Assembly: GCA_016699425.1 (NCBI GenBank)
Contig: CP064975.1
Location: forward strand, 923,957 to 987,956
Origin: Candidatus Moraniibacteriota bacterium
GTDB taxonomy: Bacteria; Patescibacteriota; Minisyncoccia; Moranbacterales; UBA1568
Reading direction: 5' to 3'
Length of the DNA: 64,000 nucleotides
Shown: positions 29,020-33,882 of the stretch, piece after piece
Position numbering within the stretch: position 1 is the stretch's first letter
How the letters are laid out: each line of letters starts with the position of its first letter
Program-made: the position numbers and the translations under genes
Notes under the pieces: generated by a model
The model's input: the letters and a program-made list of their open reading frames with translations, nothing else
Database searches by the model: none
What the model was told of the DNA's origin: nothing

Positions 29020-29355
29020 TTATGAATCCAATTTCTTCTTGAAACCACCGATTTGGTTTGCTATCACGCTCACCCTCTCACGTATTTGGGAAAATTCATC
29101 TTCATCAACCAGTTTCATCTCTTTGAATGTTTCAACGGCTGCAAGCGTTTCGTAGAGCGAGCCGAGAGCGATCTCGAGAAAGCGGTTCATCTCTCTGTCC
29201 GATGCTTTGCCGCTTCCTTCAGCGATATTCAACACTACTGATAATGACGAGCGGACGAGCTGGCTACCGAGTTCGTAACGATATTCCTTCGGCAATCCAC
29301 GAACCAGTTTCAGTATCGTGGCAATAGTTCTTGAGCCGAGCGATATACTGGCCAT
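29020..29355 (-). CDS. Four-helix-bundle protein (23S rRNA intervening-sequence protein family, TIGR02436-like)
   Basis: 111 aa. Has the NIAEG motif and the typical helical layout of this family. Confidence 0.8.
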   Translation of the reverse strand: MASISLGSRTIATILKLVRGLPKEYRYELGSQLVRSSLSVVLNIAEGSGKASDREMNRFLEIALGSLYETLAAVETFKEMKLVDEDEFSQIRERVSVIANQIGGFKKKLDS

Positions 29356-29419: not shown

Positions 29420-29620
29420 TTACTTCACGACGTACGGGATCAGCGCCATAAACCGCGCCCGCTTGATCGCGAGCGAGAGATTGCGTTGCTCCGTCGAAGT
29501 CAAACCGAAACGCTTCGGTGGATAGATCTTGCCTTGGGAATTGAGAAAGCGCCGGAGAAAGTATGCATCCTTGTAGTCGATGCGGCCGAGCTTCTTTCGT
29601 GAGTCTTGGTCGAGGGTCAT
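29420..29620 (-). CDS. rpsR: 30S ribosomal protein S18
   Basis: 66 aa. Contains IDYKDAYFLRRFLNSQGKIYPPKRFGLT, a conserved S18 motif. Confidence 0.9.
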   Translation of the reverse strand: MTLDQDSRKKLGRIDYKDAYFLRRFLNSQGKIYPPKRFGLTSTEQRNLSLAIKRARFMALIPYVVK

Positions 29621-29656: not shown

Positions 29657-30133
29657 TTAGAACGGGACGTCTTCGATCTTGATTTCCTTCTCATCGTCGA
29701 GATTGATGGTCGGGATCTCCTCTTCATTGATCGGTGCAGCATTCTTGGGCGCTGCGGCCGAACCGCTCGACTGTGGCCGCGGAGCACTACCCGCCGATGC
29801 GCCCTGGGCTCGCGAACCAAGCTGCATAGTCTCGCCGACGACCTCGGTGACGCGGCGCTGACTGCCGTCCTTGGCGGTGTACTCGCGTGTCTGGAGCCGC
29901 CCCTCGATGAAGCACTCCTGCCCCTTGGTCAGGTACTGCCCGGCGATCTCTGCTTGCCGCCCCCAGAGGATGACGGTGTGGAATTCAGTCTTCTCCTGCT
30001 TCTGACCACCCTTGTCCGTCCAGAAATTATTGGTCGCCATGCCGATAGTCGCGACACTCTGCCCCGTCGGTGTCGTGCGGATCTCCGGATCACGAGTCAG
30101 TCGACCGACGAGGATGACTTTGTTCACGTTCAT
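29657..30133 (-). CDS. ssb: Single-stranded DNA-binding protein
   Basis: OB fold (NKVILVGRLTRDPE...FHTVILWGRQAE), a Gly/Ser/Ala linker and an acidic DVPF tip. Confidence 0.9.
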   Translation of the reverse strand: MNVNKVILVGRLTRDPEIRTTPTGQSVATIGMATNNFWTDKGGQKQEKTEFHTVILWGRQAEIAGQYLTKGQECFIEGRLQTREYTAKDGSQRRVTEVVGETMQLGSRAQGASAGSAPRPQSSGSAAAPKNAAPINEEEIPTINLDDEKEIKIEDVPF

Positions 30134-30179: not shown

Positions 30180-30707
30180 TTAGATATCTAGTTTTGCCTT
30201 CAACTGAGCATCGATTTCCTCTTTGCTCGCCTCTTTGGCAGGTGCCACTGGGGTAGGTGCTGGCGATGTGGTCGCACTGTGTGCATCACCTGTCGGCCGT
30301 TCGCGACGGAAGTTGCCCCGGGCGCGCGGGTCTTTCTTCGTGTATTCGGTCCGCTCGATCGGCTTCAGTTCCGGCAACGTGTCCGCCCGCATGATGAGCA
30401 CGCGTAGCACGGTCTTCGACAACGCAAACTTCCGGTTCATCCGCGTGATCGCATCACCCTTCGCCATTTCAACCTCAAACTCTTTCGCCGAGAGCTCACT
30501 CTTGTCTGGCAATGTGAAACGGCGGGCGATATAGATACCCCGTGTCTCATCTCCGACCTCATAGGCGAGCTTGCGCTTGTCCTGAGTCTCTGGCGCGAGA
30601 AACTCTGCTCCTTCCTCGCGACAGATTGCCTCGACCTCGGTTCGAATCGCATCGAGGCTCGGCTCCTTGCTCTCTCCGATCAAATAAAATAGTTCGTACT
30701 CGCGCAT
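30180..30707 (-). CDS. rpsF: 30S ribosomal protein S6 with C-terminal extension
   Basis: Contains MREYELFYLI...RKLAYEV, the S6 signature. First gene of the rpsF-ssb-rpsR cluster. Confidence 0.9.
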   Translation of the reverse strand: MREYELFYLIGESKEPSLDAIRTEVEAICREEGAEFLAPETQDKRKLAYEVGDETRGIYIARRFTLPDKSELSAKEFEVEMAKGDAITRMNRKFALSKTVLRVLIMRADTLPELKPIERTEYTKKDPRARGNFRRERPTGDAHSATTSPAPTPVAPAKEASKEEIDAQLKAKLDI

Positions 30708-31607
30708 ACTAGATCAGCTGATTATGTGGTTACTCTGCAGTATAAATAAAAAACCCAAGAACAATCGGGAAAGTCAGTGGGACGGGCGGACTCCTATCCA
30801 GTTCAGACCCTTCCCCGCCAGCTGGCGGATCAGGACTCACAGGCGGGAATCTCTCGGACTTTCTCAGTTGTTTCCAGAGTGTAGCCGATAATCCCGACCT
30901 TGGCAAGGCGCTAGTCATGAGTGACTCTCCTGAGTGATGCCGCCCGCAACCTGTGGAGAAATGATGCTGCCCCGGGATCGAATCGATCCTCGGGGCATGG
31001 TACTGCTTACTTCGGGTCTCGCCCTGAGGAGGACGAGACCATTGCCGATGTTATTCAGCTTCTTCGCGCAGCGTCGACCTGGCCGGATGCACCTGCATTC
31101 ACGCCCGAATGCGGCGAATCGTGGGTCTGCTCGTGTTGCCGGTGGACAGTCGCGCTTGACATCGCCTTGGCGCCATTCTCGAAGCGCAATGCCGGGGAGC
31201 CCCGAGGGGCCGATTTGATTCTGTGTTTCATACTCGCCTCTCCTTTAGAGACTGATGAAAACGAAATGACGCAGAACCTCTGGAAGATGCACCCGCTGGG
31301 ACACTACATGCTTCACGAGAGGCTTGCGCCGCCAACTGCCTCGATACAACCGAGAACAGCAGGGAAAGGAGAACCATGTTTCTACTCTCTCCGCTGCCCT
31401 CGACTCTTCGCCACGAAAAAGAACTCTGGACACAGTATAAGGAAAATCAGGATAGCGAGTCAAGAAGCTCCCCCAAGAACTCTGATGCTTTCAAGAAACC
31501 TATCTCCGAGAGTATTGCCCTGTCCGATTCTAATCCTCCTCCGAGATCACTCGACATTGAACCCCGTTGGCGCAGTGGGTGGTGTGGTGTCGCCTCAGAA
31601 CTCATCC

Positions 31608-32864
31608 TCAGAACAGTTTCTTGTAATTGTCCGCCCAGTAGAGGACGCCGTTGATATAGGGGGCATAGCTCGTGCCGAGGTAGGAGGCGGCTGCTTTCTT
31701 CCAGGCACTCCGACTGCCACTCGTGACACCCGGCGTCTTGGACAATTTGGTGGCCATCGCCATGACGCCATCGGTCAGGTTCCACGGGTCCGGCGGATTG
31801 TGTCCGGTCTTTGACGCGACCTGGGATTTGTACCCCATCCAGGTGTCCGGCATGAACTGCGCCACCCCCATCGCACCGCCGGTCCCCGTGTAGCCACTCG
31901 GATTACAGGAAACTTTTTTCTTTTTGTAATCGTAACCGAGTTCCTTCGTGATCGACTTGAAGACTTCGCGTCGACGCTGAAACGTCGCCCAGGAAGCCTT
32001 GGAAAGTTTCCCTGACTTGTAGCGTGCTTCCGCTCCCTTCTCCACCTCGGCATAGGTGCAACCACCGACGTTTTTTCCGAGGTTGGTCTCCATCTTCAGC
32101 ATCCCCATGAGGAAGCCCTTCGGGACACCGGTCTTCCCACTGGCATAGGTGACGGCTTCCTTGATGTCCCCTGCATCATATGACCCGCCTGTCAAGGCAT
32201 TCAAGTCGCTCTGCAATTCATTCAGCTCCTTCTGGAGACGAGACACCGTCTTGGCGACATCTTCGACATCCTCAAGCGTCTCCTGCTGATCAGAAACGAG
32301 TACATTCTTCTCGATGGCCTTTTTCTGAAGGAGCGTCTCATGATCCTTCTTCGCATCCTCAAGTGAGAGCTTTTCGGATTCCGTATCTGCCTGAGTCAGC
32401 GAGAGCGATTCGAGCATGGAAGAAATCTTCTCTCCGACAGTCAAGAGCTTGTCCGGATCATTGACCACATCCGTGAACCGCTCCTCGGCGACCAGGACAC
32501 GAGGCAAAGGCCACTCCCCCTGGTAGTACAATTCCCGCATGAGGCCAGTGATGAGCTCCTTCTTATCTACGATCTGTTCTTCGAGCAAAGCAACCTCGGC
32601 TTCTTTCCGCTCGATGGTATTCGCCGCCTGCTGGATCTTGATCTGTGTTTCCGCGATCGCGCGCTGCGTCGACGAGAGCGAGGCATTGATGCCGGCGAGT
32701 TCGGATTCGAGCGCTTTCTTTTTGGCTTCTGCCGCCTTGAGCTTCTTCTCGACATCGGAAATATCATCTTTGATCTCACCCGAATCAGCGGCAGCCAAAA
32801 CTGGCGGAGCCGAAGAAACGATGCTGCCCAGCATCAGGAGAGACAAGAAAAGAAAACCAAGCAA
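31608..32864 (-). CDS. Secreted coiled-coil protein with C-terminal lytic transglycosylase (SLT-like) domain
   Basis: Signal peptide or TM helix, about 200 aa of heptad-rich coiled coil, then GGAMGVAQFMPDTW, an SLT-type catalytic region. Confidence 0.7.
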   Translation of the reverse strand: MLGFLFLSLLMLGSIVSSAPPVLAAADSGEIKDDISDVEKKLKAAEAKKKALESELAGINASLSSTQRAIAETQIKIQQAANTIERKEAEVALLEEQIVDKKELITGLMRELYYQGEWPLPRVLVAEERFTDVVNDPDKLLTVGEKISSMLESLSLTQADTESEKLSLEDAKKDHETLLQKKAIEKNVLVSDQQETLEDVEDVAKTVSRLQKELNELQSDLNALTGGSYDAGDIKEAVTYASGKTGVPKGFLMGMLKMETNLGKNVGGCTYAEVEKGAEARYKSGKLSKASWATFQRRREVFKSITKELGYDYKKKKVSCNPSGYTGTGGAMGVAQFMPDTWMGYKSQVASKTGHNPPDPWNLTDGVMAMATKLSKTPGVTSGSRSAWKKAAASYLGTSYAPYINGVLYWADNYKKLF

Positions 32865-32943: not shown

Positions 32944-33882
32944 CTACTTGGAAGACTCGACTTCGATCTCCTTTACCCGCTTCCAGATAGCCTTCTCAAT
33001 TTCTTTGCCAACTTTCGGATTCTCCTTGAGGAACGCTCGTGTCTGCTCCCGGCCGACGCCAAGCTTCACCTCACCAAAGGAATGCGTGTTCCCCTGCTTC
33101 TTGATGACTTCATATTTCACCCCGGTATCGAGCACGTCATCGCTCCACGAGATACCTTCGTTGTACATGATGAAGAACGATGTCGTCCGGAACGGCGGGG
33201 CCACTTTGTTCTTCACAACTTTCACATTGACCTGATTGCCGACGACTTCCTCACCCTTCTTCACCTGAGCACTCTTCCTGACTTCGATCCGGACGGATGA
33301 GTAAAATTTCAACGCATTGCCGCCGGTCGTTGTCTCGGGATTGCCGAACATGACGCCGATCTTCATGCGCAACTGATTGATGAAAACGACGACGACATTG
33401 GAGCGCGAGATAATAGCGGTCAATTTCCGGAGTGCCTGACTCATGAGTCGCGCTTGCCGGCCGACATGCTGATCACCCATCTCCCCCTCGATTTCCGCCC
33501 GCGGCACGAGCGCGGCGACCGAGTCGACGACGATGATATCGACGGCGTTCGAACGCACGAGTGTCTCGACGATATCGAGCGCCTGCTCGCCTGAATCCGG
33601 CTGAGAAATAAGCAGTTCGTTTACATTCACGCCGATGCGCTTTGCATACTCCGGATCGAGTGCATGTTCCGCATCGATGAAGGCTGCAACACCCCCCGCC
33701 TTCTGGGCATTGGCAATCGTGTGCAGCGTCAAGGTCGTCTTGCCTGAAGACTCCGGACCATAGACTTCGACGATACGGCCGCGCGGGACGCCACCGATAC
33801 CGAGCGCGATGTCGAGCGACAGCGATCCCGTCGGAATCGCCTCGACATCCACCTTCCGGACATCGCCGAGTTTCATGATCAT
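32944..33882 (-). CDS. recA: Recombinase RecA (N-terminal helix apparently frame-disrupted)
   Basis: Has the [10 protein letters not shown] Walker A, the L1/L2 loops and a C-terminal domain. The ORF begins at MIMKLGD, but the conserved QGKFGEG that precedes it is in-frame without a start codon. The first about 20 aa of a RecA N-terminus ([23 protein letters not shown]) are encoded in another frame from an ATG at 33965. Confidence 0.93.

Follow-up and report, generated by a model that had tools for sequence, protein, structure and literature searches.

A probable transcription attenuator in the rpsF-ssb-rpsR leader of Candidatus Moranbacteria

Introduction

In Escherichia coli, the S6:S18 dimer of ribosomal proteins autoregulates rpsF, and in Bacillus subtilis it binds the rpsF leader (PMC4647458, PMC3895269). 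The RNA motif recognized by the dimer, S6S18CBM (Rfam family RF02893), was described by Matelska 2013 (PMC3854524), Fu 2014 (PMC3895269) and Babina 2015 (PMC4647458). Chlorobi lack the standard motif, and Eckert and Weinberg 2020 (PMC7247131) proposed a lineage-specific S6:S18 leader for them. In B. subtilis, the L10(L12)4 rplJL leader is a known case of attenuation by a ribosomal protein (Yakhnin 2015, PMC4538822). Here, we analyze the region upstream of rpsF in a 64,000-nucleotide stretch of DNA from a Candidatus Moraniibacteriota bacterium (the window) and describe a promoter and 5' leader on its minus strand (30748-30906) that probably constitute a Moranbacteria-specific attenuator of the rpsF-ssb-rpsR operon, with S6:S18 as the probable signal.

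The regulatory RNAs of Candidate Phyla Radiation (CPR) bacteria are almost unexplored. The searchable literature yielded no link between Moranbacteria or CPR bacteria and ribosomal-protein leaders, and no family of Rfam 15 matched the element described here. An earlier note, made from the DNA letters, had drawn attention to about 900 bp (30708-31607) between a gene for an SLT-domain coiled-coil protein and rpsF, which it described as highly structured and as possibly holding an rpsF leader, another structured RNA or a small protein. All genes around this region lie on the minus strand (recA, 32944-33882; the SLT-domain gene, 31608-32864; rpsF, 30180-30707), and the 900 bp are therefore the upstream region of rpsF and are read here on the minus strand, to which all features below belong unless another strand is given. 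About 125 of the 900 bases are a conserved structured RNA, and the remaining ~700 form a rapidly evolving spacer without a credible protein gene. The feature proper is a promoter-plus-leader unit of ~160 bp at 30748-30906.

A conserved leader RNA upstream of rpsF

Scans with RpsF gave 18 loci from species-representative genomes and nine more from metagenomes, all of Candidatus Moranbacteria type (CPR) except two Peptococcaceae loci. Five further Moranbacteria loci, with RpsF about 50% identical, were obtained by protein search and exact-protein look-ups, and all five of these distant loci carry the leader element; an exact-protein look-up of the window's own RpsF returned no record. In blastn comparisons of the intergenic region with the first 18 loci, matches were confined to ~30741-30907 of the window. 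A covariance model built from a MAFFT alignment of 25 sequences found exactly one copy per locus, on the same strand and upstream of rpsF, at 30 of 30 distinct Moranbacteria loci, across which RpsF identity ranges from 97% down to about 44%. The model had no second match in the 64-kb window and none in some 235 kb of flanking sequence, and it matched neither the Peptococcaceae nor the E. coli controls. Several of the loci come from metagenome-assembled genomes (MAGs) whose TPA_asm records are titled 'uncultured Bdellovibrionales bacterium' (L001, L004-L006, L008-L013, L015 and L017); these labels look wrong, as gene order, protein identity and the leader itself place the loci with Moranbacteria.

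The predicted leader RNA is 124 nt long and runs from ACAAC to the end of a U-tract (30748-30871; covariance model match of 83.7 bits, E = 1e-15, at 30749-30871). A promoter scan and conservation identified a sigma-70-type promoter, with a -35 hexamer TTGCCA (30901-30906) and a -10 hexamer TACACT (30878-30883) that ends 6 nt before ACAAC, a spacing of 6-7 nt at all inspected loci; from the promoter position, transcription is predicted to start at about 30871. The 5' strand of the closing helix P1 (ACAACUGAGAAAGUC, 30857-30871) pairs with GACUUUCCCGAUUGU (30761-30775), which overlaps the terminator hairpin. Compensatory changes in P1 include G-C to U-A (16 versus 8 sequences) and A-U to G-C (21 versus 6). 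At the P1/P2 junction (J1/2) lies CCG (30855-30857), an instance of CCR that occurs as CC[A/G] in 29 of the 30 sequences and is a candidate S18 recognition site.

Helix P2 is formed by GAUUCC (30846-30851) and GGAGUC (30789-30794), with two pairs that each occur as four to six pair types. UCCCGC (30843-30848) makes up the top of P2 and the 5' side of an internal loop; it is invariant in the 25-sequence alignment, and 28 of 30 sequences have CCCGC without a mismatch. Opposite to it, GAUA forms the 3' side of the loop and is followed by the 3' strand of P2 (together 30789-30798), GAUAGGA being nearly invariant. The invariant nucleotides are concentrated in this asymmetric P2/P3 internal loop, UCCCGC opposite GAUAGG, within which a G.U pair is retained in 28 of 30 sequences. 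The loop is capped by the variable hairpin P3 (30799-30842), which has covarying pairs (U-A/C-G, 19:10) and an apex of about 10 to about 75 nt among the loci. In the window, the apex bears an extension, UCCGCC-AGCU-GGCGGG (30814-30829), found here only. At its 3' end, the RNA carries the terminator hairpin CCCGAUUGUUCUUGGG (30754-30769) and the U-tract UUUUUU (30748-30753), both identified by a terminator scan and kept in place and order in orthologues. The rest of the 5' untranslated region (UTR) up to the rpsF ATG (30708-30747) contains no Shine-Dalgarno sequence and leaves no space for a separate promoter.

The rpsF upstream regions share a common order of elements: a TTGCCA/TTGACA-17-TAnnCT promoter, 6-7 nt, ACAACUGAGAAAGUCC, (N)UCCCGCY, a variable hairpin, GAGAUAGGA, a segment complementary to the 5' end, a hairpin rich in G+C together with a U-run, and the ATG at a distance of 17-40 nt (in rare cases as much as 166). 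The elements listed in the earlier note could all be found, displaced by 7-10 nt from the positions it gave. The long-range pairing that it had noticed, between GGGAAAGTCAG (30767-30777) and GACTTTCTC (30857-30865), is helix P1 of the covarying minus-strand RNA, and the palindrome that it saw enclosed therein, CCGCCAGCTGGCGG (30815-30828), is the window-specific apical extension of P3.

The pairing is supported by covariation. In the unfitted MAFFT alignment of 25 sequences, the P1/P2/P3 model pairs 84% of cells, versus 35-53% in slid controls, and RNAalifold recovers P2 and the base of P3 unaided. In the 30-sequence alignment, 89.6% of cells are paired (37-56% when slid) and 11 pairs show compensatory changes; the observed covariation score was reached by none of 500 shuffles. 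The long-range pairing proposed from a single sequence is conserved in relatives. The description of the 900 bp as highly structured finds no support in folding energies, which are not unusual; covarying structure beyond chance is confined to 30748-30906.

Competing folds and transcriptional control

All loci have the promoter in the same form, TTGCCA/TTGACA, a 17-nt spacer and TAnnCT, at a fixed distance from the RNA start. Likewise, every orthologue has a hairpin of 5-13 bp followed by a U-run, with a stem sequence that differs between subgroups (CCCAC/GUGGG, CCAGCC/GGUUGG, UCCGCC/GGCGGA, CACAGAC/GUUUGUG). These hairpins were itemized for 25 loci; in the 30-sequence set, the model matches to L025 and L042 stop short of the terminator. 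Genome-wide, promoter-like (sigma-70) and intrinsic-terminator sites are commoner than in shuffled sequence.

In 28 of 30 sequences, the terminator hairpin spans the P1 3' strand, and in all 30 the strand and the hairpin have paired nucleotides in common. As the P1 3' strand overlaps the terminator in every sequence, the two folds are mutually exclusive. The unconstrained minimum-energy fold alternates between the P1 and terminator folds among orthologues, and for members of the window's subgroup the energy gap between the folds is at most about 3 kcal/mol (-36.5 versus -33.4 in the window, by enforced-pair folding, which makes P1 too weak wherever the model alignment has slipped register).

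The distance from the U-tract to the rpsF ATG is 17-40 nt at most loci and 40 nt in the window. In the aligned rpsF upstream regions, no separate rpsF promoter is conserved after the U-tract, and the spacing is too short for one. Use of Shine-Dalgarno sequences is low, with a GGAG, GAGG, AGGA or AAGG motif upstream of 7 of 30 presumed gene starts in the window, and none of these motifs precedes rpsF, ssb or rpsR; the Moranbacteria lineage seems to make little use of such sequences. Since rpsF has neither a promoter of its own nor a Shine-Dalgarno sequence, its expression depends on read-through from the leader promoter, and since most genes here have no Shine-Dalgarno sequence, its occlusion is unavailable as a means of control. 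Between the start codon and the terminator, a motif UAAMC-NN-YUAAG was observed 15-22 nt before the rpsF ATG (30715-30735 in the window; same place in L001-L007, L014 and L020), which may be a translation-initiation signal in this Shine-Dalgarno-poor genome.

The leader has two general features of ribosomal-protein leaders, a covarying structure in the 5' UTR and a platform able to switch, here the terminator overlapping P1. The comparison of loci establishes the promoter, the covarying RNA structure and the terminator, and also that the two folds exclude each other and that the leader occurs exclusively upstream of rpsF; as far as sequence can tell, promoter, structure and terminator overlap together have the anatomy of a transcription attenuator. 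A full promoter, a defined 5' end and a terminator are also the anatomy of an independent small-RNA gene, whose product would act in trans or bind a protein and whose position next to rpsF would be incidental. The invariant internal loop indeed resembles a protein-binding site, and the terminator fold is predicted to be stabler than the P1 fold in many orthologues, which would yield a mostly terminated short RNA. However, the leader stands upstream of rpsF, in the same orientation, at 30 of 30 loci, despite an upstream neighbor that varies among them (SLT gene, secreted-protein genes, a GIY-YIG gene or an NAD-binding gene), and in the window and at every locus long enough to show the operon it is followed by rpsF-ssb-rpsR. 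A separately transcribed small RNA would moreover leave rpsF without a promoter, given that the stretch after the U-tract is too short for one and that none is conserved in it. Finally, covariation is seen in P1 and in the terminator although the two cannot coexist, as expected of a switch and not of a stable small RNA. We therefore consider an independent small-RNA gene quite unlikely.

Comparison with known leaders

The Moranbacteria leader resembles S6S18CBM in several respects. Both are located in the 5' UTR of an rpsF-first operon that contains rpsR, and both consist of an outer helix around a variable-length hairpin with a conserved base. A conserved CC(R) in an unpaired junction is a possible further parallel, with S18 retaining the CCR-reading residues. 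Their presumed purpose, autogenous feedback by the S6:S18 dimer, is also the same. However, the known motif is situated on the ribosome-binding site, with CCR 2-3 nt before a sequestered Shine-Dalgarno sequence, and exerts translational control, whereas the Moranbacteria RNA lacks a Shine-Dalgarno sequence and terminates, in the window 40 nt ahead of the ATG, in a terminator that competes with P1, such that control would be transcriptional. In addition, the best-conserved CCR of the Moranbacteria RNA lies 5' of the inner hairpin, and its UCCCGC/GAUAGG internal loop has no counterpart in the known motif.

RF02893 had no match in 30500-31800 at E<=10, nor in the whole window at the gathering threshold, while the E. 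coli leader, as a positive control, scored 110.1 bits. This family model appears to be narrow, missing at E<=10 a canonical-looking hairpin in the Peptococcaceae locus L018. Such S6:S18 hairpins, of the form …AGUCCGGGGGGAGGAGG-ATG, were seen at both Peptococcaceae loci (L018, ~1020-1075; L027, ~2445-2500). Judged by its predicted features, we do not assign the Moranbacteria leader to the RF02893 family, but regard it as a structurally new version of the same regulatory concept. The suggestion of an rpsF leader of the known S6:S18-binding kind thus holds for the presence of a structured leader, with the observed pairing as its closing helix, and fails for the kind, there being no RF02893 match, no Shine-Dalgarno sequence and a terminator at the end.

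In the B. subtilis infC operon, the L20 leader is another transcription attenuator that depends on a ribosomal protein. Like that leader and the rplJL leader, the Moranbacteria RNA opposes an antiterminator helix to an intrinsic terminator, and excess protein would favor termination; protein, RNA fold and phylum differ, and in Moranbacteria both the binding and the direction of the switch are predicted. With the Chlorobi leader, it shares its character as a lineage-restricted replacement upstream of rpsF-ssb-rpsR, the absence of the standard motif and of an operon Shine-Dalgarno sequence, and the lack of obvious rRNA mimicry. The two differ in lineage, and no homology was detected (no Rfam 15 family at E<=10), the comparison being otherwise by description.

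Searches of the window, the region and six loci against Rfam, at gathering and E<=10 thresholds, gave nothing relevant. In particular, the families that the earlier note had proposed checking (rpsF leader, RNase P, tmRNA, 6S, SRP) produced no hit at threshold and no relevant one at E<=10. Neither Rfam nor ARAGORN detected RNase P, tmRNA, 6S, SRP or tRNA in the region, ARAGORN finding two distant tRNAs only. A by-eye likeness of GAAAGUCCG to CR-I of RNase P was discarded, as there was no Rfam match, an RNA of 124 nt is three times too short, and the sequence is accounted for as P1's 5' strand.

Proposed mechanism and ligand

We suggest that 30748-30906 is, more likely than not, the promoter and 5' leader attenuator of the rpsF-ssb-rpsR operon, specific to Moranbacteria and probably sensing S6:S18. 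In one fold, the closing helix P1 (5' end with 30761-30775) would enclose P2, the UCCCGC/GAUAGG internal loop and P3; in the other, the P1 3' strand would be taken into, or enclosed by, the intrinsic terminator hairpin, with the U-tract following. By default, P1 would form first and work as an antiterminator. Once S6:S18 exceeds free 16S rRNA, the dimer would bind the leader, its likely site being the P2/internal-loop module together with the adjacent CCR. The bound dimer would keep the P1 5' strand from its partner, such that the terminator could form and transcription would halt before rpsF.

We infer the ligand from the gene association, and the direction of the switch from feedback logic only. 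The operon encodes both S6 and S18, and the S18 of the window retains the K and R of AIKRAR that are equivalent to E. coli K60 and R63. In the ribosome, S18 K60/R63 read the bulged CCG (C719-C720-G721) of 16S rRNA, and by analogy the J1/2 CCR may be the S18 site of the leader (PMC3854524).

Several observations weigh against this model. The folding energy of the leader is no better than that of shuffled sequences (z = +0.43), and the window's own terminator is weak, with 5 bp including one G.U pair. The loci were gathered via RpsF, so that the lack of further copies covers the retrieved locus DNA only. Three CC elements compete on an equal footing for the role of S18 site, namely the J1/2 CCR, UCCCGC and a further CCR in the 3' junction (J2/1). 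The last is present in 29 of 30 sequences and doubles as a terminator arm; because it lies in the 5' arm of the terminator, S6:S18 binding there would give antitermination, the wrong sign for feedback. In Smith-Waterman comparisons of the leader halves with E. coli 16S rRNA, the S6:S18 site (h22/h23 junction, 673-721) was not hit, and scores were at chance level; among ribosomal-protein leaders, likeness to the protein's rRNA site is common without being required. Moreover, S6:S18 binding, transcript ends and expression in these uncultured organisms are all predictions.

Two apparent similarities to 16S rRNA were set aside. A by-eye likeness of GAGAU..GGAG..CCG to 16S 703-721 was dropped on account of the chance-level local-alignment scores. 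CCGCCCGUCCCAC (30776-30788), in the 3' junction of the leader, matches 16S rRNA 1399-1411 at 12 of 13 bases; this match, confined to the window's subgroup and with an uncorrected shuffle p of about 0.03-0.04, is most likely due to chance.

A cis-acting attenuator of the same build could also sense another signal, such as SSB, which the operon encodes as well, another ribosomal protein or assembly factor, or, as a riboswitch, a small molecule or ion. In the invariant loop, unpaired A residues flank a G.U pair, a motif recognized by several ribosomal proteins, and the comparison with 16S rRNA revealed no sequence mimicry of the S6:S18 site; S6:S18 itself is deduced from gene association only. 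Nevertheless, every characterized rpsF-operon leader binds S6:S18 (PMC3854524, PMC3895269, PMC4647458), and among ribosomal-protein leaders there is no established exception to the conservation of the ligand (PMC7247131). In addition, no known riboswitch family matches in Rfam at E<=10, and some 20 strictly conserved nucleotides around one loop would fit a protein site better than a metabolite pocket. A ligand other than S6:S18 thus appears unlikely. We also deem it rather improbable that the RNA represents a new attenuator or riboswitch class, or a dual-function small RNA, that couples the S6-SSB-S18 operon to another signal; its pocket would then be the UCCCGC/GAUAGG loop, and a small molecule, an alarmone or a CPR-specific ribosome-assembly factor would be candidate ligands.

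If attenuation by S6:S18 is correct, this lineage has retained S6/S18 feedback, but has swapped the widespread motif that hides a Shine-Dalgarno sequence for a termination-based RNA. It would then be a further clear instance of a ribosomal-protein leader reinvented by convergence, and would provide a compact RNA-protein pair for studying RNA recognition by S6:S18. The covariance model can be used to annotate the element in Moranbacteria MAGs, in which gene callers put spurious hypothetical open reading frames (ORFs) over the leader.

The spacer upstream of the leader and neighboring genes

The other part of the region, 30908-31607, is a lineage-specific spacer that comprises what is left of a deleted gene, a rapidly diverging stretch that contains an unconstrained 58-codon ORF and two strain-conserved hairpins. 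Compared to shuffles, folding of the 700 nt is unremarkable on either strand (z = -1.64, minus; -0.66, plus). The synteny recA-SLT-[variable]-leader-rpsF is kept among relatives, the variable slot being occupied by secreted-protein genes of 300-475 aa. Among them, an intact gene for a secreted, polysaccharide-lyase-like protein (300-405 aa) lies between the SLT gene and the rpsF leader in L001, L002, L019 and L029-L035. At 31547-31591, the window contains the last 14 codons and stop of such a gene (DTTPPTAPTGFNVE*), as revealed by tblastn matches to the C-termini of the L001, L002 and L019 genes. The idea that the spacer as a whole is a degraded copy of the genes inserted in relatives was rejected, as the match is limited to these 14 codons.

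Strains with 97% identical RpsF share the spacer. Between them, 31504-31050 is about 78% identical, with many indels. By comparison, 31036-30691 shows 0-4 mismatches to the closest strains, and the first ~90 nt of rpsF (30603-30690) show about 20 differences. The interval 30691-31036, which holds the palindrome, the neighboring hairpin, the promoter and the leader, reflects either constraint reaching 140 nt upstream of the promoter or a recombination mosaic.

The near-perfect 26-nt palindrome (30970-30995, no strand assigned) lies outside the conserved family element. Only the closest strains carry it, in identical form; other Moranbacteria lack it. As a single-copy sequence, it was rejected as a repeated or mobile element. 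The T-loop-like sequence that had been read in it is not part of anything tRNA-like according to Rfam and ARAGORN. A second hairpin, GGUCUCG...CGAGACC (31015-31040), is likewise single-copy and conserved among the closest strains only, with no U-tract after the stem. In the L030 strain group, it shows one compensatory change of U-A to C-G and one change of C-G to U.G, and these changes favor a function in minus-strand RNA. Further upstream lies a promoter-like site, TTGACT-18-TATACT (31434-31463; 10 of 12 matches), with hexamers conserved and a spacer varying in the closest strains. Such a site would drive a transcript through the 58-codon ORF towards the hairpins at 31015-31040 and 30970-30995, and the palindrome and its neighboring hairpin may be the 3' end of this transcript.

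The absence of a convincing protein gene between the SLT-domain gene and rpsF was borne out, codon usage being non-native and Pfam matches lacking. For all ORFs of 49-297 aa, codon usage falls within the wrong-frame distribution and below about 99% of real-gene segments. Six of the 49-, 55-, 58-, 62-, 72-, 92-, 94- and 297-aa ORFs were scanned against Pfam and had no match (the 55- and 62-aa ORFs lay outside the scan), and tblastn showed no conservation of the region's ORFs beyond overlaps with leader or SLT DNA. The 297-aa plus-strand ORF, suspected from the outset to be spurious, overlaps the SLT gene in antisense, scores as non-coding in codon usage and has no Pfam match; it was rejected, as was a 92-aa plus-strand ORF whose ATG is absent from the closest strains.

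The ORF of 58 codons (31055-31231) had been put forward as a possible small protein gene and would, as such, be the interesting content of the region. It is preceded by a Shine-Dalgarno-like AAAGGAGAGG (31237-31246) and, further upstream, by the conserved promoter-like site at 31463-31434. In all three strain haplotypes, its ATG follows a GGAG-rich motif and the frame is open, and a database of 5.8 billion proteins holds one homologue, of 57 aa, which is the sole member of its own protein cluster. However, the genome rarely uses Shine-Dalgarno sequences, and we estimate that, at the G+C content of this DNA, about 1 in 8 frames would be open over 58 codons by chance. Moreover, the ratio of nonsynonymous to synonymous substitution rates (dN/dS) is about 1 (1.18 and 0.94), and the three codon positions have evenly distributed substitutions (11/16/12 and 15/15/15). 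The codon score of -0.16 is below 99% of real-gene segments, no Pfam family matches, and none of the more distant relatives has the ORF; the ATG is out of the conserved frame in the L030 strain group, represented by five independent assemblies. We conclude that this ORF is probably not a functional protein gene, and regard a small protein encoded here as very improbable.

Downstream of rpsF, the minus strand continues with ssb (29657-30133), rpsR (29420-29620), a gene for a 23S-IVP four-helix-bundle protein and efp. The 23S_rRNA_IVP gene (29020-29355; Pfam E = 1e-23), located between rpsR and efp, is patchily distributed at this site: among L001-L027 it was detected by tblastn in L002 and L020, and gene calls place it in the closest strains, L029-L033.

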